From: Candidatus Onthoplasma sp. | GTDB lineage: Bacteria; Bacillota; Clostridia; Christensenellales; UBA1242 | Direction: 5' to 3' | DNA length: 64,000 nucleotides | Assembly: GCA_045633705.1 (NCBI GenBank) | Contig: JAZQYV010000017.1 | Location: 2,916-66,915 of the forward strand | Shown here: in pieces, positions 2,027-52,239 of the stretch | How positions within the stretch are numbered: position 1 is the stretch's first letter | How the letters are laid out: each line of letters starts with the position of its first letter | Notes under the pieces: model-generated | Seen by the model: only the letters and a program-made list of their open reading frames with translations | Databases searched by the model: none | What the model was told of the DNA's origin: nothing | Translations under genes and position numbers: made by a program

Positions 2027-2157
2027 TTGATAGAAAGTATTTAAAAAATTACATTTATATTTATTTAAATAAAAATAAATAAATTTACAAAAAATAGCAT
2101 AAAAGCTTTGACTTTTTTTGTTGTAAAATGTTAAAATTATTGCAAACGGAGGGGACT

Positions 2158-5100
2158 ATGAGTTTCAAAAAGAAAATACTATTAAGTCTGTCTATTTTCT
2201 TTTCATTTTTAATTATAGCGCTGATGGGGATTGCATTTAATGCTAAAGATGCATCATTTTCAAGCCCAGCTAACAAGGCAAGCGCAAGTAATGAAGAAAA
2301 GGTTTTAGTTGTGCCAAATGAGGGGAAAAACCCTATTAAGAGTAGTTTGGATTTTGTTTATGAGCCACATGCGATGGCAGCGTCATCAACAAGCGCAACC
2401 ACTAAGGTTTATGAATTTGCATTTGGTAACACCGGCAGTCAAACAATGGGTGTTGATTTGTATACAAGATTGTCTGAGATGGTGGGAGATGGTCAGGACT
2501 TGAATGTTAACGTCTCGTATGCTACAAGTGCTACACGATTGACATCTTTTACTGACAATACAACTTCTAGCTATTCAATTTCTAAAATTGAAAGGGGAAA
2601 TACACAATATGCTTATGTAATATTATCGGTTATTGATAAAACTAAACCAGTTGATTTTACTACTTCACTTGATTGGGTGTATGGTAAACCAATTGATATT
2701 ACATGCTACATAAAAGACGATTCGGTAGGATTGGATTATCAAGAAGAATTAACTTTAATTGCATCTACCAACATATACGAATCGCTAACCAAAATCAACG
2801 TTAGAGGAGGTTATGGTGTATTAGCATATTATAGTAATGAAGAAAAAACAGATGAAATCGACTTAAACACATTGGTGTATGACGGCATTAAAGTTTACTT
2901 TAAGCTTGATACAACAGGTGAATTTAATCCATACAACAATCCTAGATGGTTTGCGTTAATGGGGCCAGATGCTGATGGTGATGGAAAAGATGATGTGCAA
3001 AAATATTATAACACTGAGCTTGCTGGTGTGGATTTTTACTACTATAGAAACTTTTTAACATCTAAAGCAGATGTGTCTCCATACTACTTTCAAGTAATAC
3101 ATGGAAACACAACAATTAAAGTTGCAACAGAAGATAATGATTACGAATCGCTAGATAAATTAGGCCAATTAATTGTCCCAGCACAATATACTTTAAAAAA
3201 TACATCACTTACAATTCCAGTTAAGAAAATAGAGTCACTTGAAGTGTATAGTATTGTGAACGACCCTAATCCAATAGCAGTATTTTCTGGTCAAAAACAA
3301 ATTACATCAATAGTAATTTCCGAAGGTATTGAAACTATTGGTTATGGTTGCTTTAATGAGTGTGATAGCTTAAGGTATATTGAAATACCAAGCTCGGTTA
3401 CATATGTAAACAGGATGGCTTTCCAATATTGTGATAATTTGGAAGAGGTTAAATTTATTCCGCGTACGGATGATACGGAAGTTGTATTAGATAAGATTGT
3501 ATTCAATCAAAATCCAAAACTATCAAAAATAACTTTGCCAAACAATCTTAAAAATATTGACAACAATTGCTTTTATAAAAATCCAAACTTGAGAACAATA
3601 GATATTCCAAACTCGGTTACGTCAATTGGAATTAATGCTTTTCAAGGTTGTTCGGTATTAACTTCGCTATATTTTGAGGAAGGCACAAACATAACTTCTA
3701 TTGGACAACAAGCATTTTATCAATGCGGAAATTTGACAAGTATAGGCTCATTTGCGTATTCGTCAGATAACTATGTAGATGAATCTACAAGGCAAACCTC
3801 AACATATGGTTTTGATATGACATACATGGGAGATCTTGAATTAATTGCGCATGCAGCATTTGCACAATCTGGACTTAATAAAGTGGTAATACCATCAACC
3901 GTATCATCTTTATCTGGAGGCAATAGCCCAGAATCAAGTGGAAAAGTTTTCCAGGAGTGTACAAAACTCGTGGAGGTTGAGTTTAAAAGCAATACTCGTT
4001 TGGACGTAATACCCATTCAAACATTCCAATATTGTGCAAGTTTGCAGGTTGTTAAACAAATTCCATTGGTGTCTACAATATGTGCGTGGGCTTTTGACAA
4101 GTGTGCATCATTGCATACTATTACAACCGTAGATGATGCTACACAATATGTTGTTAATGTTCCTGGGACTGATATTGGCAAGCAGGCATTTAGCAGTTGT
4201 ACAAAATTAACAAAAGTTGTACTTATCGGGACTCCGGAAAATATTCTACAAAACACATTTGCTAGTTGTGAAAAACTTGAAACTGTTGATTTTGGAACAG
4301 CGACGCCAGAAATGATTGATCGTTTTGCATTTGCACATTGCGATGCTTTAAAATATTCTTTAATTAATGGCACACATTATAACTATTTTAAAATTCCTGA
4401 AGGCGTTAAGTTTATTGGTCATGGTGCTTTCTATGATTCATTAGGCTTGGTAGATGTAGAGTTGCCAAGCACATTGGTTCAGTCTTTTGAAGGTTCAGCT
4501 GATGGAGAAACTAACTATGGTATTGATAGTTTTGCGTTCCAAGCGTGTTTAAATTTAAAAACTGTTACATTGCATGGTTCAAGCGCTTCAGGTTCGTTAC
4601 AAACGTTAGCATCTAGCGTGTTTAATGGTTGTACAAATCTAGAAAAGGTTGTGATACCAAATAATATTAAAACCTTAGGAAATAATTTGTTTAATGGGTG
4701 TAAAAAAATCACTCAAATTACAAATGATTCGTCAGTAAGCAATGGTGTGATTATTTTGTCAGGCACCAATGATTTGGTTATAAATCAACAAAGCTTTGCA
4801 AATTGTACAGGTTTGCAGTCTATCAATTTTGGTAGAATTCAAACAATTGGTAATAGAGCATTCCAGGGATGTGCGGGGTTAACCACTATTACACTTCCTA
4901 AAACAGTTACATCAATTGGGGCATATGCATTCCAAGATTGTACTGCATTGACCACATTAACGTATGCAAATGACACCCCTTTGACAGCTGTGTCAGAAAA
5001 TATGTTTCAGGGGTGTACATCTTTAACAACAGTTAATATTCCGGCAACTATTAAAACAATTGGGCCATGTGCTTTCTTTAATTGTTATAAATTCAATCAA

Positions 5101-6042
5101 GCAAGTATTACTGCTAACGTAACTACAATTAGAAACAATGCATTCTGGAATTGTTATGCATTGGAAAGTGTTGATTTAACCAAGGTTACAACAATTGAAA
5201 AGCGTGCATTTACATATTCTGGAATTAAATCTCTTACACTGCCTAGTAATGTAACATTTGTTGGAGATTGGGCGTTTGCATATTGTGATGCACTTACGTC
5301 TGTTGATTTCTATCAGTGTTCCGGAGATGTGTTTAGTGGATCAAATATATTTAATAGTTGTAAATCATTAACTTCGGTTACAATTTCTGAAAATATAAAC
5401 TCGTTAGGAAATAATATGTTTAGTGGCTGTTCAAATTTACGAGATGTAACGTTTGAAGAAGGGTGTCAATTAACCACAATTGCAACAAACGCATTCCGTA
5501 ATACAGCAATAACAACCATATTATTACCAGATAGCGTTACAACTATTGGTACTTGGGCATTTGCAAATTGTACTAGTTTAGTATCAATTCAAATGGATTA
5601 TGTAACAGTGATTGACCACCAAGCATTTAGCGGCTGCTCTAGTTTGGCAAACACAATTATTGAAGGCGAGACACAACAAGGCTTTATTACAACAGATAGA
5701 CTGCAATCAATTGGTTTTGGCTCGTTCCATAAATGTTCATCACTAAAAACTTTGGAATTGGGGACTGGATTAAAAACAATTAAAGGTCACAGCTTCTTAG
5801 CTTCGGGATTAACTAGTGCTAAATTTAGAACGGGTAATCATAGTTGGAAACTATATAAAACCAGTGAAGGTACACCAACAGCAACAAGTTACGGAACAAT
5901 TACTATCACAAGTGATGGTGCTAAATACAAGTATGGTTCAAGTTCTGAAATTAGCTTGGTTGTGGGTTTAACAAGCATTACAACATCAATACCAAATCAG
6001 GGTGGTGTATACGCTGTTTACCTATATTGGGAAAAGCAATAA
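2158..6042 (+). CDS. cell-surface leucine-rich-repeat protein (BspA-type LRR)
   Basis: N-terminal TM/signal anchor, ~350-aa non-repeat region, then >25 tandem ~23-aa units of the form I-x-I-P-x-S-V-T-x-I-G-x-x-A-F-x-x-C-x-x-L; start placed at ATG 2158 behind GGAGGGG RBS (track ORF opens at 2128). Confidence 0.8.
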   Translation: MSFKKKILLSLSIFFSFLIIALMGIAFNAKDASFSSPANKASASNEEKVLVVPNEGKNPIKSSLDFVYEPHAMAASSTSATTKVYEFAFGNTGSQTMGVDLYTRLSEMVGDGQDLNVNVSYATSATRLTSFTDNTTSSYSISKIERGNTQYAYVILSVIDKTKPVDFTTSLDWVYGKPIDITCYIKDDSVGLDYQEELTLIASTNIYESLTKINVRGGYGVLAYYSNEEKTDEIDLNTLVYDGIKVYFKLDTTGEFNPYNNPRWFALMGPDADGDGKDDVQKYYNTELAGVDFYYYRNFLTSKADVSPYYFQVIHGNTTIKVATEDNDYESLDKLGQLIVPAQYTLKNTSLTIPVKKIESLEVYSIVNDPNPIAVFSGQKQITSIVISEGIETIGYGCFNECDSLRYIEIPSSVTYVNRMAFQYCDNLEEVKFIPRTDDTEVVLDKIVFNQNPKLSKITLPNNLKNIDNNCFYKNPNLRTIDIPNSVTSIGINAFQGCSVLTSLYFEEGTNITSIGQQAFYQCGNLTSIGSFAYSSDNYVDESTRQTSTYGFDMTYMGDLELIAHAAFAQSGLNKVVIPSTVSSLSGGNSPESSGKVFQECTKLVEVEFKSNTRLDVIPIQTFQYCASLQVVKQIPLVSTICAWAFDKCASLHTITTVDDATQYVVNVPGTDIGKQAFSSCTKLTKVVLIGTPENILQNTFASCEKLETVDFGTATPEMIDRFAFAHCDALKYSLINGTHYNYFKIPEGVKFIGHGAFYDSLGLVDVELPSTLVQSFEGSADGETNYGIDSFAFQACLNLKTVTLHGSSASGSLQTLASSVFNGCTNLEKVVIPNNIKTLGNNLFNGCKKITQITNDSSVSNGVIILSGTNDLVINQQSFANCTGLQSINFGRIQTIGNRAFQGCAGLTTITLPKTVTSIGAYAFQDCTALTTLTYANDTPLTAVSENMFQGCTSLTTVNIPATIKTIGPCAFFNCYKFNQASITANVTTIRNNAFWNCYALESVDLTKVTTIEKRAFTYSGIKSLTLPSNVTFVGDWAFAYCDALTSVDFYQCSGDVFSGSNIFNSCKSLTSVTISENINSLGNNMFSGCSNLRDVTFEEGCQLTTIATNAFRNTAITTILLPDSVTTIGTWAFANCTSLVSIQMDYVTVIDHQAFSGCSSLANTIIEGETQQGFITTDRLQSIGFGSFHKCSSLKTLELGTGLKTIKGHSFLASGLTSAKFRTGNHSWKLYKTSEGTPTATSYGTITITSDGAKYKYGSSSEISLVVGLTSITTSIPNQGGVYAVYLYWEKQ

Positions 6043-6122
6043 TCAAGTCTTTAAAAAGATTATGCAGATTGTCTAAATGTTTAAATTTTATAATTTAAAC
6101 TGATAATAATATTTAGAAATTC

Positions 6123-6150
6123 AAAAAACTTCCATTTGGAAGTTTTTTGT
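6123..6150. terminator. bidirectional-looking rho-independent terminator
   Basis: AAAAAACTTCCA-tt-TGGAAGTTTTTT. Confidence 0.8.
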
Positions 6151-6236
6151 TTTGTAGAACACAAATTTAAAAAAGCAGGCATTAAATTTTTACTGAATAA
6201 GCATTATAAAAATATTAATAAAATATTCTTTAGAGA

Positions 6237-6265
6237 TTGACACGCTGCTTTATAGCTGTTATAAT
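6237..6265 (+). promoter_or_regulatory. sigma-70-type promoter
   Basis: TTGACA (6237-6242), 17-nt spacer, TATAAT (6260-6265). Confidence 0.7.
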
Positions 6266-6288
6266 TAAATAAAGGTTAAGGGGAAGAT

Positions 6289-8328
6289 ATGTATAGCGCA
6301 ATTGAGTCTCAAAATATAAAATTATTTGATACTGACAATAATAAAACAAAATTAAATGTATTAAAATATGCGGATAGCCGTGATTTTGTTATGATCGATG
6401 GCAAGTTGACATACATTATGCCCGAAACTATTGAAGTTGTTGGTGAAAATGCCTTTAATGGCTCAAGTGTGCAACGTGTTGTGTTTTCACCTAATTTAAA
6501 AAAGATTTGTGCTGACGCTTTTTCCGCATCGTCAATTGAAGAAGCTGTTATTCCTGATAGTGTGGTAGCCATAGATAATGGCGCATTTATATATTGCAAG
6601 CAATTAAAAAGGGTTGTTTTACCAAATAAATTACAGATGTTAAAGGCACGTACTTTTTGCGACTGTATTAGCCTTGAAACAATTGATTTTCCTTCAACAT
6701 TATTTTATATTGGAGAAAGATGTTTTGAAATAAGTGGATTAAAACATATAACAATCCCAAGCGGTGTTAAGGTTGTTGATGACGGAGCATTTACTGGTTT
6801 AAAAATTGACGAATTAAATATTGAAAGCGATAAAATTAAACTTGCAAAACAAGCATTCTATGAATGTGAAATCAAACAGCTTTCGGTTAGCGGTAGGCAA
6901 TTCAATTTTACTAACTTAGATAGATATGAAAAACATTTATGCAAGAGCTTAACAAATGTAGATCTATTGAACAAGTTAAATACATTATCAACCATGCTTG
7001 GCAAACAACATGTTCAGTATGCTTTTGCATTAGAGGTAATTAATAGTAACAAGCAAGATGAATTTAGCACGGCATACTTTAAATATTACAATCAATTATA
7101 CAAATTATATTTTGGAGACACTGCCAATGCAAAGCCTGGGTTAGTAGCAGATTTTCAAAGATTATGTTTTAACCTGGGCGTATTTGATAGAGAAGTTGCG
7201 CAAAAGCCAGCAGAGTTTTTAAAATTAGTATATCAAGAACCAACAAAAAAGATTTCCAACATTGATGAGGAAGTGGCTGAAAATGATGTGCAATATGGCC
7301 TGTCTCCACGAGATATTACTACTTTGTTTCACGCTATGAACTTAAAGGGATATAACCAAAGTTTTACTAAATTTTTTTGTACGAGAAAGATTTTTAATGG
7401 TTTGATGCATAGAGCAGGTTTTGGGCATGATTTTATTGCTCGCGTATATAATGCTTACGATGAGGTTCAAAAGTATAATGTGTCAAAGAATGCTCAACAT
7501 CGCCAACTTGCGCCTACAATAGCAAAGTTTGAGCAATATTTTTCAACATCATTTAAGGGTGCAGATAGATATCCGGATATTGCGATGGAAATGGCAAAGT
7601 TTACTGACAAGCAAGAAGATTTTGACTATGCCGTACAGATATATGAAAAATACAAGCAAATGGTTGAAGAAACCAAGCTTGTTGATGAAGAGATAAAAGA
7701 AAATGATGTGTTTGAAGCAATTGATTTTTATTCAAAGCAAATTGTTGATAATATGATAGATACGGCTACAGTGTTGGGAGAACTTGCTAGCAAAGATTAT
7801 ACTTACGAGTGGCTTGCTAAAAACGACAAGAGAAATTTGATGTTAGGCTATTATTGTTCGTGCTGTGCACATATTGCTGGTGCAGGTGAAGGAATTGCTG
7901 AAGCAAGCATAATATTGCCTAATATGCAAAATTTAGCCATTATGGATAAGCTTGGAGACATTAAAGCAAAGTCCACAATATTTGTTAATGAGGAAATGGG
8001 ATATGCAGTTTGCAATAATGTTGAGATAAATATAGATTTGTTAGGTGATGAAAAAGCAATAAAGAAAATTTATGATAAGTTTATAGTGGCAATAAACGCA
8101 TTTGTTGAAAAATATAACGCAACACATGATAAACCCATAACTGAAGTTGTTGTTGGTATGGGCAAAAACGACTTAGAACCACTGCTAAAAGATGCGCCAA
8201 GACCATCACAACTATTAAAGGCAATTGATTTTAGCAAGTATGGAAGAAAGCAATACGATGGCGATTGGCAAAAAGGACAACGCATAGTTTATTCAAGTAA
8301 AGAGGGGGAAATACTATGGATAAAATAA
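6289..8328 (+). CDS. BspA-type LRR N-terminal domain fused to ~470-aa uncharacterised C-terminal domain
   Basis: Residues ~40-200 show the same LRR unit as the upstream gene (IPDSVVAIDNGAFIYCKQLKRV...). The rest has no motif I recognise (contains GYYCSCCAHIAGAGEG). No signal peptide. Confidence 0.7.
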   Translation: MYSAIESQNIKLFDTDNNKTKLNVLKYADSRDFVMIDGKLTYIMPETIEVVGENAFNGSSVQRVVFSPNLKKICADAFSASSIEEAVIPDSVVAIDNGAFIYCKQLKRVVLPNKLQMLKARTFCDCISLETIDFPSTLFYIGERCFEISGLKHITIPSGVKVVDDGAFTGLKIDELNIESDKIKLAKQAFYECEIKQLSVSGRQFNFTNLDRYEKHLCKSLTNVDLLNKLNTLSTMLGKQHVQYAFALEVINSNKQDEFSTAYFKYYNQLYKLYFGDTANAKPGLVADFQRLCFNLGVFDREVAQKPAEFLKLVYQEPTKKISNIDEEVAENDVQYGLSPRDITTLFHAMNLKGYNQSFTKFFCTRKIFNGLMHRAGFGHDFIARVYNAYDEVQKYNVSKNAQHRQLAPTIAKFEQYFSTSFKGADRYPDIAMEMAKFTDKQEDFDYAVQIYEKYKQMVEETKLVDEEIKENDVFEAIDFYSKQIVDNMIDTATVLGELASKDYTYEWLAKNDKRNLMLGYYCSCCAHIAGAGEGIAEASIILPNMQNLAIMDKLGDIKAKSTIFVNEEMGYAVCNNVEINIDLLGDEKAIKKIYDKFIVAINAFVEKYNATHDKPITEVVVGMGKNDLEPLLKDAPRPSQLLKAIDFSKYGRKQYDGDWQKGQRIVYSSKEGEILWIK

Positions 8329-8546
8329 TCGATGAATTTATGCGCATAACGACACAATTAAATGATTGTGCGCTTCAGTTTAAAATTTTACAAAACAAAG
8401 CAATAAAGCTAAAACAATCTTTTAGAAACACGCCAAAACAATTGGCTGAAATTGTAAAACTTGAAAAAGAATTTAAAAAGCTTAATATGGTAACCTATGA
8501 TTTGAGATTAAAGGCTTCAAAGTTAAAGGTGAGTAAGCCTGAATAA
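8316..8546 (+). CDS. hypothetical small coiled-coil protein
   Basis: 76 aa; ATG overlaps the stop of the upstream gene by 13 nt behind GAGGGGG (translational coupling). Confidence 0.5.
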   Translation: MDKIIDEFMRITTQLNDCALQFKILQNKAIKLKQSFRNTPKQLAEIVKLEKEFKKLNMVTYDLRLKASKLKVSKPE

Positions 8547-8999: not shown

Positions 9000-9028
9000 T
9001 TGATTTTGCTTAAAAAAGATGTTAAAAT
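9000..9028 (+). promoter_or_regulatory. sigma-70-type promoter
   Basis: TTGATT (9000-9005), 17 nt, TAAAAT (9023-9028); predicted start just before element E1. Confidence 0.55.
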
Positions 9029-9042
9029 TATATCAAGTATTG

Positions 9043-9111
9043 CGCAAAGCAAAAGCTCAACAGCTTTATAAGGCATATTGTGCCTTGTTAGGCAAAGCCT
9101 CATGCTTTGCG
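9043..9111 (+). ncRNA. candidate structured element E1 (four-way junction, 5' leader of methyltransferase gene)
   Basis: 9-bp closing stem CGCAAAGCA/TGCTTTGCG enclosing hairpins 9052-9067, 9070-9086, 9090-9100; same architecture at 49454-49532 and 52098-52168. Confidence 0.45.
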
Positions 9112-9128
9112 TCTAAAGCGAGGATTTT

Positions 9129-11886: not shown

Positions 11887-11892
11887 AATATT

Positions 11893-12012
11893 ACCATAAA
11901 GAGTGCGTAAGGGACAGCCCCGTTGACCGCACGGCAACCTGCATATGTAAGGTGCCAAAGGCTGAATGATGGGTTTATTAGTAGGAAATCCATCTAACGA
12001 TGGCTTTTTTTA
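11893..12012 (+). promoter_or_regulatory. SAM riboswitch (SAM-I core with SAM-IV-like 3' side, i.e. SAM-I/IV type) with terminator expression platform
   Basis: AAGAG-UGCG-UAAGGGACAGCCCCGUUGAC-CGCA-CGGCAACCU...AGGUGCCAAAGGCUGAAUGAUGG matches the SAM-I core (GGGA..GCCC..UGA, GGCAACC...GGUGCC). GGCUG can pseudoknot with CAGCC. P1 is CCAU/AUGG. The 3' P1 strand GAUGG competes for CCAUC of the terminator CCATC-taac-GATGG + T7. Confidence 0.7.
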
Positions 12013-12054: not shown

Positions 12055-12330
12055 ATGAAACAAACACAAAGAAAACAACATTTAGTAAAACTAAACAATG
12101 CAAAGGAAGGGAATGAGTTTATTGAATATTTGGAGCAAAATGGTTTTGACAATATTCATAATCTTAGCTTTGAAAATTTGCGAATTAAAGTTATTGGTGT
12201 TACTGATAAGAAATTTGGAGCGGTAAGCGTTACTTGCTTGGCAGCGTTAGCAAGCAGTAAAATTTATCCTATTAGTGTTGATGAATTTAAAAATTGTGTT
12301 GAATTGAAAAATCAAGACTATAATTTATAA
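12055..12330 (+). CDS. hypothetical 91-aa protein, only gene downstream of the SAM riboswitch
   Basis: AAGGAGA RBS; no motif recognised; followed by an independent promoter for the T-box leader. Confidence 0.6.
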   Translation: MKQTQRKQHLVKLNNAKEGNEFIEYLEQNGFDNIHNLSFENLRIKVIGVTDKKFGAVSVTCLAALASSKIYPISVDEFKNCVELKNQDYNL

Positions 12331-12394: not shown

Positions 12395-12645
12395 CTTTCG
12401 GTATCTTAATAAATCGTAGATTATAGACAAGTAGGCTATTAATCAACTGTTACAGAGAGTTCCCTGCAGGCTGAGATTGGGGCATAGTATTAATAATTGA
12501 AACCACTATATGAGATTTGACGTTAGGGAATAGTCCTAAAAATTGAGAGAATTAATACGCTATTTTATAGTGATTAGTTAAATAAGGTGGAACCGCGAGG
12601 AATATCGTCCTTATGTTGTTGCATAAGGGCGATATTTTTATTTTG
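12395..12645 (+). promoter_or_regulatory. T-box leader, threonine specifier (ACC)
   Basis: AG box AGAGAG (12453-58), GCUGAGA distal motif (12470-76), specifier loop GAA-ACC-A (ACC 12502-04), F-box-like CGUUA (12521-25), T-box AAUAAGGUGGAACCGCG (12581-97), 14-bp terminator 12602-12635 + U-run. Confidence 0.85.
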
Positions 12646-13833: not shown

Positions 13834-15624
13834 ATGGAAGAAAAAGATTTAGAAAAAGTAAAAGAATTACAACAAAAACAAGAAATGTATCGTCATAGTA
13901 TGAGCCATGTGCTTGCTAAGGCAATCAAAAGCATTTGGGGCGATGTAAAGTTGGCAATAGGACCTGCTATTGACAATGGTTTTTACTATGATATAGATAT
14001 GGAACAATCAATTAAGCCAGAAGATTTTGGCAAGATTGAAGACAAAATGCGTGAAATTATATGCAATAACGAAGATTTTGTACGTTTTGAACTAAGTAAG
14101 GAAGAGGCGTTGGAAAAGTTTAAGGACAATCCTTATAAAGTAGAATTGATTAATGAACTACCTGAAGGCGAACTTATTACAATGTATCGCACTGGCGATG
14201 ATTTTTATGATTTGTGTAGAGGATCACACGTAGAAAATACTAAATTTTTGCGTGGATTTGCTTATAAAATTAATCGTGTAAGCGGTGCTTACTGGCGTGG
14301 TAGCGAAAAGAATAAGATGTTACAACGTGTATATGTTTATGGTTTCCTAGACAAAAATGACCTTAAAGCATATATTCATCAAATGGAAGAAGCCCTAAAG
14401 CGCGACCATAACAAGTTGGGTAGAGAATTAGGCTTGTTTACAACTGTTGACTATATCGGCCAAGGTTTACCAATCTTGTTACCAAAGGGTGCAAGAATAG
14501 TTCAATTACTACAACGTTTTGTTGAAGATGAAGAACAAAAGCGTGGCTGGTTGTTAACCAAAACACCATTTATGGCAAAGAGTGACTTGTACAAGATTTC
14601 TGGCCACTGGGACCACTATAAAGATGGTATGTTTGTGTTGGGTGACGAAAATAAGGATAAGGAAGTGTTTGCACTTCGCCCTATGACTTGTCCTTTCCAA
14701 TATCAAGCATATTTAAATCAACCAAGGTCTTACAAAGATTTACCACTAAGATATAACGAAACTTCTACACTATTTAGAAATGAAGAAAGTGGCGAAATGC
14801 ATGGACTAATTCGTGTACGTCAATTTACAATTAGTGAAGGTCACTTAATGTGCACGCCTGACCAATTAGAAGATGAATTTAAGCGTTGCCTAGAACTAGC
14901 AATCTATATGCTTAAAACTTTGGGATTGTACGAAGACGCATCTTATCGTTTCTCACAATGGGACCCAGATAATCGTGCAAAATATATTGGTACTGATGAA
15001 CAATGGACGGCAGCTCAAGACAGCATGAAACGCATACTTGATAATCTTCAAGTTCCATATGAAATTGGTGTAGGGGAAGCGGCTTTCTACGGACCTAAAT
15101 TAGACATTCAAATCCGTAACGTTTGGGGCAAGGAAGATACGCTTATTACTATTCAAATTGACCAACTGCTTGCTGAAAAGTTTGGTATGGAATATACTGA
15201 TAGCGATGGAACTAAGAAACATCCTTACATCATTCATCGTACAAGTATTGGTTGCTATGAACGTACTTTGGCGTATCTAATTGAAAAATATGCAGGCGCA
15301 TTCCCAACATGGTTGGCTCCAAATCAAGTTAAGGTTATTACCGTTAGCGAAAAGAATAATGAGTATGCTGTTAGGGTGGCGGAAGAATTAAGTGCTTGTG
15401 GACTACGTGTTGAAACTGACCTAGATAACGAAAGTGTTGGTAAAAAGATTCGTAGTGCTGTTATGGAAAAGAACCCATATATTTTGATTCTTGGCGACAG
15501 AGAAATGGAAGAAGGAACCGTTGCTGTGCGTAAGCGTGGCAGTCAAGAAACAACTGCTATGAGCCTGGCTGAATTTAAGGCGGAAATCTTAAACAACATT
15601 GCAACCAAAAGTTTAACAGTTTAA
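13834..15624 (+). CDS. thrS: threonine--tRNA ligase, lacking the N-terminal TGS domain
   Basis: 596 aa; starts at the editing domain (HSMSHVLAKAI...AIGPAIDNGFYYD); class II motifs FRNEESGEMHGLIRVRQFTISEGH and anticodon-binding C-terminus. Confidence 0.95.
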   Translation: MEEKDLEKVKELQQKQEMYRHSMSHVLAKAIKSIWGDVKLAIGPAIDNGFYYDIDMEQSIKPEDFGKIEDKMREIICNNEDFVRFELSKEEALEKFKDNPYKVELINELPEGELITMYRTGDDFYDLCRGSHVENTKFLRGFAYKINRVSGAYWRGSEKNKMLQRVYVYGFLDKNDLKAYIHQMEEALKRDHNKLGRELGLFTTVDYIGQGLPILLPKGARIVQLLQRFVEDEEQKRGWLLTKTPFMAKSDLYKISGHWDHYKDGMFVLGDENKDKEVFALRPMTCPFQYQAYLNQPRSYKDLPLRYNETSTLFRNEESGEMHGLIRVRQFTISEGHLMCTPDQLEDEFKRCLELAIYMLKTLGLYEDASYRFSQWDPDNRAKYIGTDEQWTAAQDSMKRILDNLQVPYEIGVGEAAFYGPKLDIQIRNVWGKEDTLITIQIDQLLAEKFGMEYTDSDGTKKHPYIIHRTSIGCYERTLAYLIEKYAGAFPTWLAPNQVKVITVSEKNNEYAVRVAEELSACGLRVETDLDNESVGKKIRSAVMEKNPYILILGDREMEEGTVAVRKRGSQETTAMSLAEFKAEILNNIATKSLTV

Positions 15625-17959: not shown

Positions 17960-17987
17960 ACGCAACTTGGTTGCGTTTTCGTTTTTA
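17960..17987 (+). terminator. rho-independent terminator
   Basis: ACGCAAC-ttg-GTTGCGT followed by TTTCGTTTTT. Confidence 0.7.
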
Positions 17988-18002
17988 AATAAGGAGATGT
18001 GT

Positions 18003-18488
18003 ATGCGAGTATTGGGGATTGACCCTGGGTATAATATTATAGGCTTTGGGGTGGTGGAAAGCAATGGCAATCAAGTGATTGATTATGGTGTAATTACCAC
18101 ACCTAAAAATATGCCTATGAGTGAACGACTAAAGGTTATTTTTGAGGCGACAAATGAACTGATTGATAACTTTAAACCCGACCAAGTTGCGTTTGAAGAA
18201 TTGTTTTTTAACAACAATCAAAAGACCGCTGTACCAGTAGCTCAAGCGCGCGGAGTGTTGTTGCTGGCGTGTAAGCTAAAAATGGACGATTTGTACGAAT
18301 ATACACCACTTCAAATCAAGCAAGCTTTGACTGGTGTTGGTCGTGCCGAGAAAAAACAAGTACAATATATGGTTAAGTCGATATTAGGACTTGAAAGCAT
18401 ACCGCGCCCAGACGACGCTGCAGATGCTTTGGCAGTTGCCCTTTGCCATATTCAAACCAATAGCGTGTTAACCGATAACAGAGTGTAG
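18003..18488 (+). CDS. ruvC: crossover junction endodeoxyribonuclease RuvC
   Basis: MRVLGIDPGYNIIGFGVV...FEELFFNNN...DAADALAVALCH; ATG 18003 behind AAGGAGA (track opens at 17967). Confidence 0.93.
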   Translation: MRVLGIDPGYNIIGFGVVESNGNQVIDYGVITTPKNMPMSERLKVIFEATNELIDNFKPDQVAFEELFFNNNQKTAVPVAQARGVLLLACKLKMDDLYEYTPLQIKQALTGVGRAEKKQVQYMVKSILGLESIPRPDDAADALAVALCHIQTNSVLTDNRV

Positions 18489-18648
18489 GTGTCGTGGACA
18501 CCGGCAAGTAAGTTAATACGCCGATTTATATTGTTAACTATATTAATTTATTGGATGTTGCGTTATGTTGTGGCGACTGGATTGTCAATGTAAAAATAAT
18601 AGTAATAAACATATTTGTAAGTTTACAAGTGTGTTTTTTATTTGCCTA

Positions 18649-18676
18649 TTGACAAAATTTGTATTTGTGATATAAT
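18649..18676 (+). promoter_or_regulatory. sigma-70-type promoter inside a conserved 23-nt block
   Basis: TTGACA, 16 nt, TGaTATAAT; block TTTTTTATTTGCCTATTGACAAA at 18634-18656 recurs at 24661 and 63005. Confidence 0.7.
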
Positions 18677-18695
18677 TCGGTTATAGGAGTAGATT

Positions 18696-19286
18696 ATGAA
18701 AGTGGAAGTTAATAGCCTTGTGCGTGCAGGAGAAATTAAACACCTTGAAGATAAAGGTGCGGTGGCGGAATATGAAGTGCTTGAATTTACACGTCAAGAT
18801 ATAATTGATAAAACCGAAACAGCCGTTAAGTATTATGAGAGCCTTAAACAGTTGCTTGAAATTAAAACCAAGCAATACGTTGAATCTGGTATGGAAACTG
18901 ATGAACAAGAAAACAAAAAATTAAATTTACTAATTGATATTGAAGAATTGGTTTATACTTTTGCGTGGTATAATGACGTTTCATGGTTAGATGTTTGGAA
19001 CAGGGCAAAGCTTGGCAGTATGCAAACATTTGCAAAATATGCACGCGTTGGCGAGCCTAACTTTGCGGGCTGTGTTAAAGAATATTTAACATTTGAAGAT
19101 AAGGACGACTTAAGTTATATAGAAATGGCATTGTTTGATGAACTTAAAAAGTTTAGCGCTAGCCCTAGTTTTTATTTCAAGTTTCAAGATAGACGAAAAG
19201 CCAAGAAAAACAGGCTTGGTGGCTATAAGGCAGGCCATTATTTAAAGAGCATTGAATATGCAAATATTCAAGGGCAAAATAAATAG
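18696..19286 (+). CDS. hypothetical protein
   Basis: 196 aa; TAGGAG RBS; no motif recognised. Confidence 0.6.
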   Translation: MKVEVNSLVRAGEIKHLEDKGAVAEYEVLEFTRQDIIDKTETAVKYYESLKQLLEIKTKQYVESGMETDEQENKKLNLLIDIEELVYTFAWYNDVSWLDVWNRAKLGSMQTFAKYARVGEPNFAGCVKEYLTFEDKDDLSYIEMALFDELKKFSASPSFYFKFQDRRKAKKNRLGGYKAGHYLKSIEYANIQGQNK

Positions 19287-19355
19287 AATTTTAGTTAATT
19301 TGCTTTACAAATTTATAACAATCAATTATTATTAGTACACTTAAAAGGAAATACA

Positions 19356-19925
19356 ATGAAATTATTTGAACAAATACGTAAAAAGTATGAAGGCAGACTG
19401 CTTGCCAAGGAGCAAAAGAGGCAAGAAGAAATAAAGCGCCAACAACAAGAAAAACAAAACTATATTGAAGAGCTTTTGAACTCAACAGTTGAAGAGCAAT
19501 TTTTGTTGGAATTGTCGTGTGATTTTTATAACACAAAGGGCAAATACACATACAGCACATACGATTATTTTATTAGCGACACAAAGCGTAATGAGTTGAA
19601 GTATGGAGATAGGTTTACTATTACAAAAATTAGCGGGGGCAATATTGGAGGCAAATTTACAGCAACTGTAGGGAAAATGTCAAGTTTGAGCATGGCTAGG
19701 GCTACAAGCAATATTAAAGCATATGTTGATGGGGCAAAACTACAAGGCTTTACTGAAGATGTGCCATACATACCAGCAAAATGTAAAACTGAAGAAGGGG
19801 TTTCGGTAAGAGAGTTAAATATCTATGCAGACCAACAAAACAACAAACGTAGAGAAGATTATGCTCAAAATAAATTAAAGATGCAACAATTAGAACAGGA
19901 ACATCAAGACAAATTTTTTAGATAA
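19356..19925 (+). CDS. hypothetical protein (paralog family A, intact copy)
   Basis: 189 aa; N-terminus MKLFEQIRKKYEGRLLAK and core GDRFTITKISGGNIGGKFTATV are mirrored in the next reading frame. Confidence 0.6.
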   Translation: MKLFEQIRKKYEGRLLAKEQKRQEEIKRQQQEKQNYIEELLNSTVEEQFLLELSCDFYNTKGKYTYSTYDYFISDTKRNELKYGDRFTITKISGGNIGGKFTATVGKMSSLSMARATSNIKAYVDGAKLQGFTEDVPYIPAKCKTEEGVSVRELNIYADQQNNKRREDYAQNKLKMQQLEQEHQDKFFR

Positions 19926-19942
19926 CCACATAGGAGAACATA

Positions 19943-20548
19943 ATGACATTATTTGAACTAATACGTAAAAAGCATGAAGATAGAATACTTGCAAAAGCCA
20001 AATTAATAGAAGAAAATAGATTAAAGCAAGAGTAAACAGATGAAATATGTACAACACACGAAGTAGAAAGTGTTTGTGATGAACAAGCAGAAATTAAACA
20101 AGAGACATTAGAGGAGAAGATTCTAAATAGCAAAATACTAGTAGATTATGTTATATCTATGTATCACGACGTGAAAGGGGATTGGGAAAACAGAGATTTC
20201 CTTCAAGAATATTTTTTGAGTGACGTGGAAATAAAAGATATGCAACCTGGAGAAAAATATAGCGTAATGCAAATAACTGGCAAAAACATTGGCTTAAAAG
20301 CAACATTAATAATTAAATATGGAAGCCCTGTTGATGTTTCAGCAGAATTAGTAGATTGTGATGGAAAATTGTGGTTTGGAGATACTAGACTTTCTATGAC
20401 AAGATATATACATTTATATAAGGACGATACGATTTCAACGCTAAACGACATGGTAAATGAAAGAAATGTAAAAGTATTAGAAAGATATAAAGAAGATATT
20501 GTACTAAAACAAAAAGGTCAAGAAACAGTTAGTCAGATTTTTAAATAA
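19943..20548 (+). pseudogene. tandem paralog of 19356-19925 interrupted by one in-frame TAA (20033-20035)
   Basis: TAGGAGAAC RBS + ATG 19943 gives MTLFELIRKKHEDRILAK...KQE*. The same frame continues without further stops into the 20159-20548 track ORF (GEKYSVMQITGKNIGLKATLII). Confidence 0.6.
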
Positions 20549-20691
20549 AAAATTATATCTTTAACTAATTTACAATATAATCATAGTATTTTAGTTAAAG
20601 GTTTTTTTATTGCTTGATTTTATTTAATAATGTTGCTATAATCTAGTTATAATGAGATAATTGTGCTAAGTGGCACTAAAAGGAAGAGTTT

Positions 20692-21282
20692 ATGTTAGCG
20701 TTTATTAATGGAATTTTAAGGGAAAAATATGAAGGGATTGCAGTTATTGAGTGCAATGGATTAGGGTATGAGTTAATCCTTACCAATTCAGCATTTTGTA
20801 ATCTACCTAACGAGGACGAGCAAGTTAAACTTCCAACATACTTGCATATTAGGGAAGATGAATGGTTGATTTTTGGATTTAGTAGCGTGGAAGAAAAAAG
20901 TTTGTTCCTACAACTTATTACTGTTAGTGGTGTTGGGGCAAAGACGGCTATTCAAATTTTATCTGGTGTAAAACAAAGCGATTTGGTTAACTCGATTGTT
21001 AGTGGTGATAGCCACTTGATATCTACCGTTAAAGGTATTGGCAAAAAGACTGCTGAACGCATTGTATTGGAACTTAAGGACAAACTTAATCCATATGAAT
21101 ATGTATTGCCATTGTTTGAACAACGTGAAGAAAGTGACCCAACCGCCATTGAAGATGCAGTACTTGTGCTTACTAGCCTAGGCATTAACAAACATCAAGC
21201 AACACAACTAGCACGCAAGGTGGCAGAGCCTACCGATAATGCTGAGCAAATTGTGGCAAAAGCTTTACGAAACATGAACTAA
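20692..21282 (+). CDS. ruvA: Holliday junction DNA helicase subunit RuvA
   Basis: 196 aa; LITVSGVGAKTAIQILS and GIGKKTAERIVLELK HhH motifs. Confidence 0.9.
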   Translation: MLAFINGILREKYEGIAVIECNGLGYELILTNSAFCNLPNEDEQVKLPTYLHIREDEWLIFGFSSVEEKSLFLQLITVSGVGAKTAIQILSGVKQSDLVNSIVSGDSHLISTVKGIGKKTAERIVLELKDKLNPYEYVLPLFEQREESDPTAIEDAVLVLTSLGINKHQATQLARKVAEPTDNAEQIVAKALRNMN

Positions 21283-21315
21283 TAAACATCAAATACAATT
21301 TTAAAGGAAAACAAA

Positions 21316-22362
21316 ATGGAACAAGATAATAGATTTATATCAAGCACCAAAAATTTAAGTGATAGCGAAGTTGAAAACAAACTTCGCCCTATTACGTTTG
21401 ATGAATATGTTGGCCAAGAAAAGATTAAGGGAAATTTACGAGTGTATATAGATGCGGCTAAAAAGCGTAAAGAGGCGTTGGACCACGTGCTTTTATACGG
21501 ACCACCAGGACTTGGTAAAACCACGCTTAGCCATATTATAGCCAGTGAAATGGGCAGTCAAATTAAGGTAACTAGCGGTCCTGCTATTGAGCATGCGGCA
21601 GACCTTGCAGCAGTGCTAACCAACCTTAATAAAAATGATGTATTGTTTATTGACGAAATACACCGTCTTAATCGTAGCGTTGAAGAAATTTTGTACCCAG
21701 CAATGGAAGATTTTGCCCTTGACTTTATTGTAGGTAAGGGCCCATCAGCGCGCAGTATGAGATTGAAAATTCAACCATTTACGCTTATTGGTGCTACTAC
21801 CAAGGCAGGTAACCTTTCTAGCCCTTTGCGTGATAGATTTGGAGTGCTTGCACGTCTTGAAATGTACACCCCAGATGAGATTAAAACAATATTAAAGCGT
21901 AGTGCTAAAATATTGGGTGTAAATATTACTGATGAGGCTGCAGATGAGCTTGCACGCCGTAGCCGTGGCACACCACGTATTGCTAACCGCATTTTGCGCC
22001 GTGTGCGTGACTTCGTGCAAGTTGATGGTAAAAACATTATTGAAGTACAAGATGCTAAACGAGCACTTGACCTTATGGACATTGATACATTAGGATTAGA
22101 CTACACCGATAAAAAGGTGCTTGAAGCAATGATTGGCAAATTTGATGGCGGACCGGTGGGGCTTGATACACTTGCAGCATCAACTGGCGAAGAAAGTACA
22201 ACAATCGAAGATGTAATTGAGCCATATTTGTTGCAACTTGGATTTATTGCACGTACTCCACGTGGACGTGTGGTGCTTAGACCTGCATACGAGCATTTTG
22301 GAATGAAAGTGCCAAAACATTTGGAAAAAATTGACAACGAGGAAAACAATGAAGGAAATTAA
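21316..22362 (+). CDS. ruvB: Holliday junction DNA helicase RuvB
   Basis: [50 protein letters not shown]. Confidence 0.97.
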
Positions 22363-49228: not shown

Positions 49229-49432
49229 ATGAAATTTGAAACTTTTGGTTTAAATGTTGCTAAACATAGGATAAAAAATAATTTATCTGCGTATGAATTA
49301 AGTTTAAGGTTAGGTAAAGATGCAAGTTATATAAACAAACTTGAAAATGCCAAAATAAACCCTAGCTTAAAAATGATGATAGCAATTAGTGAGAATTTAA
49401 AATTAAATATATGTGATTTATTTAAGGAATGA
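49229..49432 (+). CDS. XRE-family helix-turn-helix transcriptional regulator
   Basis: 67 aa; NLSAYELSLRLGKDASYINKLENAKINPSLKMMIAISENLKLNICDLF. Confidence 0.8.
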   Translation: MKFETFGLNVAKHRIKNNLSAYELSLRLGKDASYINKLENAKINPSLKMMIAISENLKLNICDLFKE

Positions 49433-49453
49433 AAACATATAGTATAATAGGGG

Positions 49454-49532
49454 CGGAGTCGGGAGCAAATTTTGCAAGCAAAATTTTGTATCGCGTAAGC
49501 GATTGGCAAGGCGGAGCCTTGCGCTCCCTCCG
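49454..49532 (+). ncRNA. candidate structured element E3 (four-way junction)
   Basis: Closing stem CGGA-(gtc)-GGGAGC / GCTCCC-TCCG. Hairpins 49467-49486 (AAATTTTGC..GCAAAATTT), 49490-49503 (ATCGC-gtaa-GCGAT) and 49506-49522 (GCAAGGC-gga-GCCTTGC). Confidence 0.45.
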
Positions 49533-49670
49533 TATTGTAAAATGATATATTTATTAGGTGTAGCAATGATATTGGATAGATTGAATTGTGGAGTAAAGCA
49601 ACAAATTGTTGCACTAAATTTTTGATTGTAGGAAAGTATCAACTGAATTTTGTAATTCAGGGAGATTTTA

Positions 49671-52079: not shown

Positions 52080-52097
52080 TAAAAAATAGGCGATGTG

Positions 52098-52168
52098 GGA
52101 CAAAGCGTGCGGCAATGCCGCACAAAATGCTGGCGCATTTAAATAGGCGTGTAGCCTTTGCTTTGTCC
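52098..52168 (+). ncRNA. candidate structured element E2 (four-way junction)
   Basis: 9-bp closing stem GGACAAAGC/GCTTTGTCC. Hairpins GTGCGGC-aat-GCCGCAC (52107-23), AAATGC-tggc-GCATTT (52125-40), AGGC-gtgta-GCCT (52145-57). Confidence 0.45.
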
Positions 52169-52239
52169 TTTATTATAAATAAGCAAAATTGTTCATATAA
52201 TTGGACAACTTTGTAATATAATAATATAAAGGAGTAAAC

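Follow-up and report, generated by a model that had tools for sequence, protein, structure and literature searches.

In a 64,000-nucleotide stretch of contig JAZQYV010000017.1 from Candidatus Onthoplasma sp. (the whole of which is called the window below), the leader of a small methyltransferase gene contains a 69-base element, E1, which together with two other intergenic elements, E2 and E3, belongs to a family of GC-rich nested palindromes. The most probable explanation, which we hold with moderate confidence, is that these are foldback palindromes comparable to repetitive extragenic palindromic (REP) sequences and miniature inverted-repeat transposable elements, or MITEs, and that they come, go and are inverted by processes at the DNA level, and are passively transcribed where they lie in untranslated regions. 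It is carried by the fold itself, by the absence of E1 and E2 from the same sites in relatives, by the presence of E3 in some relatives and its absence from others, by the occurrence of the E3 interior in both orientations, and by homology between copies at different loci.

E1, E2 and E3 (Table 1) have a common architecture, in which perfect inverted arms of 9-11 bp make up a closing stem. The family unit is 69-88 bp long, and its terminal inverted repeat usually ends ...AAAGC/GCTTT... and encloses three short palindromes. The minimum free energy (MFE) fold of E1 is a four-way junction of -29.4 kcal/mol with three unpaired junction bases (z = -4.6; none of 200 shuffles folds as well), in agreement with the original prediction, made from the sequence of the window alone, that such bases are nearly absent; E2 and E3 reach -35.4 (z = -3.7) and -36.1 kcal/mol (z = -5.9), respectively. 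The positions that it gave for E1, its stems, the promoter, the ribosome-binding site (RBS) and the ATG all proved correct when the sequence was re-read, and hairpin 2 of E1 comprises nine pairs including two G.U pairs, a wider span than the 9070-9086 first noted. A local-fold scan of both strands returned E1, E2 and E3 as the top three three-branch structures of the window, which bears out the proposal of a three-copy family with one architecture, and the reverse strands of all three fold about equally well. A comparison with shuffled sequence had been suggested; when each element was shuffled 1000 times with dinucleotides preserved, the junction topology with three hairpins arose in 0.6-1.1% of the shuffles, and in no case together with the observed energy. 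The flanks of E2 contribute seven further pairs, extending its pairing to 49443-49539, and include a TATAATA before the element that pairs with a TATTGTA beyond it. A K-turn at the E2 bulge was considered and ruled out, as the pairs that follow the bulge are all Watson-Crick.

The copies have little in common beyond this architecture and a few short motifs. The motif AGGC-N3-5-GCCT-N0-3-GCT has three matches in the window against a chance expectation of 0.15, all of them on the + strand and inside the elements; at other loci its matches outside elements are only chance occurrences in coding DNA. The original prediction had placed this AGGC...GCCT core in hairpin 3; all three copies do share it, but its position is not fixed among E3 orthologues, where the AGGC hairpin comes first of the three in some and last in others. 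Each copy has 3-7 unpaired junction bases, none conserved between copies. The loops of the hairpins range from 3 to 6 bases, roughly one centre in three having only 3, and the loop sequences are neither conserved nor enriched in stable RNA tetraloops. The element ends read CGCAAAG, CGGAG, GGGGACAAAG, GGGCTGAAAG and GGGGGCAGAAC, and a MAFFT alignment of E1-E3 alone was too poor for a model. How E1 and E2 are oriented with respect to E3 is ambiguous (the motif puts all three on the + strand and a model of the E3 site prefers the - strand for E1 and E2), likely because the hairpins within one element resemble each other.

E1 is absent from the orthologous leaders of relatives. The methyltransferase leaders of L001-L007 (78-85% protein identity), L077 (89%), L078 (88%) and the more distant L008 and L009 contain neither E1 nor any GC-rich structured insert (0/11). 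Eight of the nine close relatives have the promoter, in the form of TTGATTTT or TTGCTTTT followed by 17 bases and a -10 box, with RBS and ATG within a few bases; L006 has no clear match to it. Since the promoter is kept in eight relatives that lack E1, it is that of the host gene and not of the element, which begins 14 bases 3' of the -10 box. Relative to L003 the window carries some 78-80 extra bp between TAAAATTAT and the RBS, and the empty site, when reconstructed, reads TAAAATTATATC-AAG-CGAGGA, with a possible 3-bp AAG repeat flanking E1 (seen against L003 and L077); the flanks of the other sites are too diverged for boundaries to be placed. Because it is missing from orthologous leaders in which the promoter is kept, E1 looks like a recent lineage-specific insertion, and not like the conserved cis-acting leader that it had been taken for. 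E2 is missing both from the HTH-frr spacer of L099, where the YpsA-HTH-frr gene order (HTH, helix-turn-helix) is the same, and from the region upstream of frr in L071, and L072 has a plain terminator hairpin at its position; judging from these spacers, E2 is also young and lineage-specific.

E3, which lies upstream of rseP, is an old copy. The cdsA-rseP spacer was read in eleven other assemblies, reached through CdsA relatives by protein search and contigs and including one metagenome contig, the single close relative that a CdsA search of metagenomes gave. The site is filled in eight genomes, the window counted: besides the window these are, with CdsA identity to it, L068 (96%), L069/L070 (90%), L071 (88%), L099 (84%), L097 (82%), L072 (79%) and L014 (79%). 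It is empty in three, L075/L076 (82%), L073/L074 (78%) and L098 (67%), and in the CdsA tree the empty lineage L075 falls among filled ones. The interior of E3, 48-54 bases long, occurs in both orientations. When the interiors alone were aligned on the same strand or as reverse complement, with no prior assumption about the split, the window, L068, L072, L097 and L099 formed one class and L069, L071 and L014 the other, while the right flank of E3 is homologous in both. The CdsA tree has the two classes as sister pairs twice, and at least two in-place inversions are required.

The hairpins of E3 have also changed without losing their pairing. Across seven E3 orthologues six pairs are changed on both sides, and in one hairpin (helix 2) four of the seven pairs are so changed. 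For the structure as a whole the covariation score is 0.214, compared with 0.120 in shuffles, none of 500 shuffles reaches it, and sliding the partners by 1-3 columns as a control lowers it to 0.080 or less; the suspicion of covariation in stems that differ in sequence and stay paired is supported. The closing arms GGGGACAAAGC/GCTTTGTCCCC are nearly invariant among the orthologues, and the arm parts GGACAAAGC and GCTTTGTCC are identical in all eight filled genomes.

We note two further occurrences of arm-like sequence. The block TTGGACAA(C/G)TTTGTAATATAAT lies before rseP in most of the genomes compared (window 52205-52230, L075 10940-10965), including two of the three without E3 (L073 and L075); three filled genomes have TTGTACAAG instead. 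The block resembles the E3 arms fused (GGACAAAG + CTTTGTCC) and could be an operator-like site tied to the origin or recognition of the arms. One phage-like sequence (IMG/VR viral contigs L081, at 277-353, and also L085, L089 and L094; 33-36% GC) carries four to five clustered copies of GGACAAAGC/GCTTTGTCC, direct and inverted, in an iteron- or operator-like arrangement; the 9-mer is that of the E3 arms, and this match may be a coincidence. Searching viral contigs for the E3 arms with a 45-70-base gap gave 18 matches, which by a rough estimate is about the chance number, and none has three hairpins.

Members of the family were sought elsewhere with a covariance model, R1, built from E3-site sequences only; about 0.45 Mb of related DNA was read besides the window. 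In the window, with filters off, R1 finds E3, E2 (37 bits) and E1 (30.4 bits on the - strand, 15.3 on the +) and nothing else of note, the 30-37 bits of E1 and E2 comparing with 68-88 bits for true E3 orthologues. With default filters, 873 kb of other DNA yielded only the orthologues and a new element 3' of rnhB in L075/L076 (45.7 bits), and with filters off, about 0.26 Mb of related loci yielded a very GC-rich element of L008 (33.6 bits) in a divergent spacer. At E<1e-3 R1 found no four-way junction other than the E3 orthologues, E1, E2 and these two. The rnhB element begins 20 bases past rnhB, has no counterpart in the same spacer of the window, L072, L073, L097 and L099, and has the AAAGC/GCTTT inner closing pairs and a GTGCGAT/ATCGCAC hairpin in common with the E3-site elements. 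All members are intergenic, and three start shortly past a stop codon, E3 17 bases past that of cdsA, E2, which occupies the long spacer upstream of frr, 21 bases past that of a small HTH gene (49229-49432), and the rnhB element within the same 17-21-base range. By these matches the copies at different loci are homologous, dispersed but rare.

The only other R1 match below E<1e-3 is an AT-rich fold in L077 (25.4 bits, E=4e-4), 65 bases at 20134-20198 with an energy of about -17 to -19 kcal/mol, between infC and rpmI and 7 bases past the infC stop. It shares the AAATGC/GCATT hairpin, and may be a decayed member or unrelated (for example a ribosomal-protein operator). The 10-mer TATAATAGGG stands directly 5' of both E2 (window 49441-49453) and the rnhB element (L075 6279-6298) and may be part of the mobile unit or the mark of a preferred target. 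A structural scan, which picked up a real tRNA in L012 as its positive control, gave 20 matches in 548 kb of unrelated contigs; all are imperfect folds and 19 are in contigs of 50-67% GC, so the energy thresholds are meaningful only in an AT-rich setting.

Table 1. Elements of the window and features of the methyltransferase leader (position 1 is the first base of the window)
Feature	Position	Strand	Description
E1	9043..9111	+	69-base nested palindrome folding as four-way junction
E1 closing stem	9043-9051 / 9103-9111		CGCAAAGCA / TGCTTTGCG; 9 pairs
E1 hairpins	9052-9067, 9068-9088, 9090-9100	+	
Methyltransferase promoter	9000..9028	+	sigma-70-type, TTGATT-17-TAAAAT, TG before -10 box; kept upstream of RBS in eight E1-less relatives
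Shine-Dalgarno sequence	9119-9123	+	GAGGA
Methyltransferase gene	9129 (ATG) to 9728	+	MTS small methyltransferase domain, RsmC/RsmD-like; Pfam PF05175, E = 5.7e-39
Alternative hairpin, weak	9105..9123	+	E1 3' closing arm with Shine-Dalgarno region (CUUUGC/GCGAGG), -5.1 kcal/mol
E2	49454..49532	+	79-base four-way junction; 3-base bulge in closing stem
E3	52097..52169	+	73-base four-way junction; closing arms GGGACAAAGC/GCTTTGTCC(T)

If the family is of the REP- or MITE-like kind, E1 would have been inserted between the -10 box and the RBS of the methyltransferase gene as one copy of a dispersed set of GC-rich nested palindromes, and would then be transcribed within the 5' untranslated region, where it would fold into a near-perfect four-way junction. 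At orthologous sites between genes copies would come and go, whatever lies between the terminal repeats would invert in place, and paired substitutions in the hairpin arms would keep each palindrome perfect. Their origin or spread would be a DNA process, driven by a transposase or by hairpin-driven template switching during replication, the second of which could also account for the inversions and for the substitutions in pairs. As part of the mRNA, E1 would be passive, near-neutral or mildly stabilising, and would not sense a ligand. The terminal inverted repeats and the presence/absence polymorphism at the E1, E2, E3 and rnhB sites are those of a MITE. The 3-base centres and the equal folding of both strands are typical of DNA palindromes, and the perfect stems, the flipping interior, gain and loss, and the lack of a tetraloop preference point the same way. 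In-place inversion of the E3 interior is in addition hard to reconcile with a specific aptamer fold.

A number of findings weigh against this explanation. The 11-base arms of E3 are 93-98% identical and the adjacent 25-base flanks only 62-67%, which points to sequence-specific selection at the E3 site, via a host function or a recognition site; the constraint on the arms suggests that a host function or a dedicated recognition protein should be kept in play. Comparison of 40 open reading frames (ORFs) of the window with Pfam brought up no transposase, integrase or Y1 nuclease; the recognisable ones are core housekeeping genes, and none is a candidate enzyme near any copy. There is no clear target-site duplication, the possible AAG at E1 being the only one. 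The several near-identical copies expected of a MITE are not seen, since only short motifs are common to the loci; the lack of any near-identical pair across loci and the strong sequence difference among the copies are unusual for an actively transposing MITE. The copy number looks low, with three in the 64-kb window, none in the roughly 110 kb read from seven relatives, and elsewhere 0-1 per 20 kb. Finally, the non-Watson-Crick pairs comprise 12 G.U on the gene-sense strand and one A.C, in both flip orientations, a bias that fits selection on the transcript. The force of this last point is weakened by the strong GC skew, which predicts the same bias by mutation alone, and the gene-sense strand is here also the lagging-strand template, so folding of single-stranded DNA would give the same signal.

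Selection on the transcript is the basis of the foremost rival, a host-selected RNA module that would serve as exonuclease barrier, mRNA stabiliser, processing site or branched intrinsic terminator with the closing stem as the terminator stem. We consider it unlikely, though it explains several things: if only the closing stem and compactness matter, interior flips would be tolerated, the E3 arms are nearly invariant and the site is still filled in eight genomes, helix 2 covaries, and the sense-strand G.U pairs are present in both orientations. Three copies (E3, E2 and the rnhB element) lie just past stop codons, the rnhB element is followed by GTTTTTTAAAATTTT, a terminator-like T run (GTTTTTT), and E3 in the window and L068 by the partial U-tracts TTTATTAT/TTTATTGT, and the plain hairpin of L072 at the position of E2 is a terminator. 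Such a tract is missing, however, at E1, at E2, at the L008 element and in L071, which rules out a universal terminator role; E1 lies between promoter and gene, where termination would be harmful, and three genomes have no structure at all at the E3 site. The lack of tetraloop enrichment, the many 3-base loops, the equal folding of both strands and a G.U excess explicable by GC skew also speak against it.

Somewhat less probable again is an undescribed, structure-defined class of foldback elements, in which a dedicated structure-specific enzyme would recognise the arms and maintain or move the four-way module, the interior would flip-flop, and old copies would have been adopted by the host as RNA or DNA signals. 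Such a flip-flop would resemble, by analogy, the hairpin-transfer chemistry of parvoviral or hairpin-telomere replicons. A related and slightly more doubtful proposal is that the elements are DNA sites read by a protein, an HUH nuclease, resolvase or other recombinase that binds or cuts the arms or a four-way structure extruded from supercoiled or single-stranded DNA and so drives the flips. That the arms are conserved in sequence beyond mere pairing, that the interior inverted repeatedly at one site, that the palindromes are perfect with minimal centres, and that a fused-arm-like TTGGACAAnTTTGTAA lies about 40-60 bases downstream of E3 in most genomes, two of the three E3-less ones included, would all suit it. 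No candidate enzyme is encoded near any copy, though, and the arms differ from locus to locus (CGCAAAGCA, GGGAGC, GGGCTGAAAGC, GGGGGCAGAAC), which makes a single sequence-specific reader unlikely. An interior of about 53 bp is moreover too short for classical invertase synapsis.

An independent RNA gene, that is a cloverleaf-like small RNA of 70-90 nucleotides that starts just 5' of the closing stem and ends after it, is very unlikely. It could draw on the TATAATAGGG directly upstream of E2 and of the rnhB element, on the distance of 14 bases between E1 and a -10 box, and on the run of T after the rnhB element. The promoter upstream of E1 is however that of the host gene, present without the element in relatives, and the TATAATA before E2 acts as an extension of the palindrome. 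Most copies have no terminator tail, the interior flips between unchanged flanks, and ARAGORN and Rfam recognise nothing in the elements.

The last possibility, raised by the original prediction, was that E1 is a ligand-sensing leader, for example a riboswitch for S-adenosylmethionine (SAM) or S-adenosylhomocysteine (SAH), of the methyltransferase gene. In the mRNA as predicted, P(unpaired) is 0.03-0.04 in the arms of the closing stem of E1, a stem thus present about 96% of the time, and averages 0.63 over the Shine-Dalgarno bases, so that the Shine-Dalgarno sequence is predicted to be accessible beside a stable stem; the only competing fold in this prediction is the weak alternative hairpin of Table 1, with no sign of a switch. 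The position of E1 between promoter and RBS and that weak pairing of its 3' closing arm with the Shine-Dalgarno region are all that speak for such a sensor, which is close to refuted by the absence of E1 from all eleven orthologous leaders, the near-lack of unpaired junction bases from which a pocket could be made, the unconserved loops, a closing stem far stabler than its alternative, the unrelated genes (frr, cdsA/rseP, rnhB) that adjoin other members, and the absence of an Rfam match from a scan that does detect a SAM riboswitch elsewhere in the window.

That scan covered the whole window at gathering thresholds and found no match over the elements, which agrees with the original view that they belong to no named RNA class; a permissive scan (E<=10) gave only 10-22 bits against cut-offs of 37-128. 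The genuine SAM riboswitch at 11891-11975 was detected in it and serves as its control. A known Rfam or riboswitch class was set aside on the lack of a model match, of retention in orthologous leaders and of conserved pocket bases. ARAGORN found no tRNA or tmRNA gene in the window, and with loops of 3-6 bases, where a cloverleaf has anticodon and T loops of 7, a tRNA-like class was rejected as well. Neither are the elements of the REP type or of its compound form, the bacterial interspersed mosaic element (BIME), as the unit is 69-88 bases with three hairpins and lacks a GTAG/CGTC tag, nor integron attC sites, as the arms do not fit RYYYAAC/GTTRRRY and the neighbours are frr, uppS, cdsA, rseP, rnhB and the methyltransferase gene. 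BLASTN searches of plasmids with E3 and of phages with E1 returned nothing relevant, and a full-text literature search found no matching element described.

Several other features were met in the window and its relatives. The SAM riboswitch just mentioned (RF00162, + strand, 48.5 bits) lies upstream of a 91-residue ORF (12055-12330) that has no Pfam match; it is about 2.8 kb from E1, so this genome already uses a standard SAM sensor. A T-box leader (RF00230, + strand, 12408-12615; 76 bits, E = 8e-17, below the gathering score of 93) is followed by a terminator and stands upstream of a short TSCPD-like ORF and, at 13834-15624, of the gene for threonyl-tRNA synthetase. Two BspA-type leucine-rich-repeat proteins of 1304 and 679 residues are encoded at 2128-8328, just upstream of the E1 region, and about 9 kb downstream of E1 are the genes for RuvC ... 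RuvA-RuvB (17967-22362), which process four-way DNA junctions; there is no evidence that links them to the elements. In L072 the 296-base rnhB-UPF0102 spacer (5505-5800) contains three occurrences of the 9-mer AGTGATGTT, after each of which comes a mini-hairpin of its own, as in a small repeat-spacer-like array. In L002 another palindrome (8288-8376) lies about 1 kb upstream of the methyltransferase gene, with perfect 16-base arms TAGACGTGTGCTTGTC/GACAAGCACACGTCTA and a 29-base centre.

The practical consequence is that a fold in a gene leader, although statistically solid, should not be catalogued here as a riboswitch candidate, because the same leader in relatives shows an insertion. The family comes from a low-GC, uncultured gut Clostridia lineage (Candidatus Onthoplasma and relatives) and adds a closed three-hairpin type of palindrome to the known short intergenic repeats of bacteria. 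One orthologous site combines conservation of arm sequence with repeated in-place inversion, and, if the inversion is ongoing, would be a simple natural system for the upkeep, flipping and tolerance of nested palindromes in chromosomes and transcripts.

The closest parallels are other short repeats. REP and BIME sequences are short GC-rich intergenic palindromes, often just past stop codons and in either orientation, which can stabilise mRNA or attenuate transcription when in untranslated regions and whose presence at a site is variable (PMC3333891, PMC3733652, PMC3116915). The present family is similarly GC-rich, intergenic, found in either orientation, probably transcribed in untranslated regions and variable at orthologous sites. 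REPs, which occur in Proteobacteria and are mobilised by RAYT transposases, are single imperfect hairpins of 20-40 bases with a GTAG or CGTC tag and hundreds of near-identical copies, whereas the units described here are untagged, have a closed stem around three hairpins, were sampled as few and diverse copies, and have no RAYT among the 40 window ORFs compared with Pfam. Bacterial MITEs insert in promoters and untranslated regions, where they may affect expression as a side effect (PMC10969869, PMC3184786). Like those of the Correia, RUP and bcr1 types, the elements are small and non-coding, with terminal inverted repeats and insertion polymorphism. Within a genome the copies of a MITE are as a rule nearly identical, with target-site duplications at their flanks; the copies of this family share architecture and short motifs but not sequence, and no clear duplication was found.

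Integron attC sites conserve structure over sequence, lie just past genes and act as folded single-stranded DNA (PMC5737381, DUF1874 motif section). The family likewise conserves structure more than sequence and often follows genes, but has no R''/R' boxes, extrahelical bases, integrase or cassette array, and its neighbours are core housekeeping genes. The mobile GC clusters of yeast mitochondria are GC-rich palindromic islands in an AT-rich genome, with sporadic presence, fold-preserving substitutions and merging into multi-hairpin units (PMC4478555). The elements resemble them in these traits, although the clusters belong to another domain of life, are unrelated in sequence and have one or two hairpins instead of a closed three-hairpin junction, so that the comparison is an analogy only. 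The double-hairpin elements of fungal mitochondria are comparable palindromic islands. The terminal repeats of parvoviruses such as adeno-associated virus consist of an outer palindrome around smaller ones, and their flip and flop forms have reverse-complement interiors, which is the arrangement of nested palindromes and two interior orientations found at E3. The viral structure forms the end of a linear genome of single-stranded DNA, is three-way and T-shaped, and is flipped by hairpin transfer during replication, whereas the elements described here are four-way, lie inside a bacterial chromosome, and have their two forms fixed in different species.

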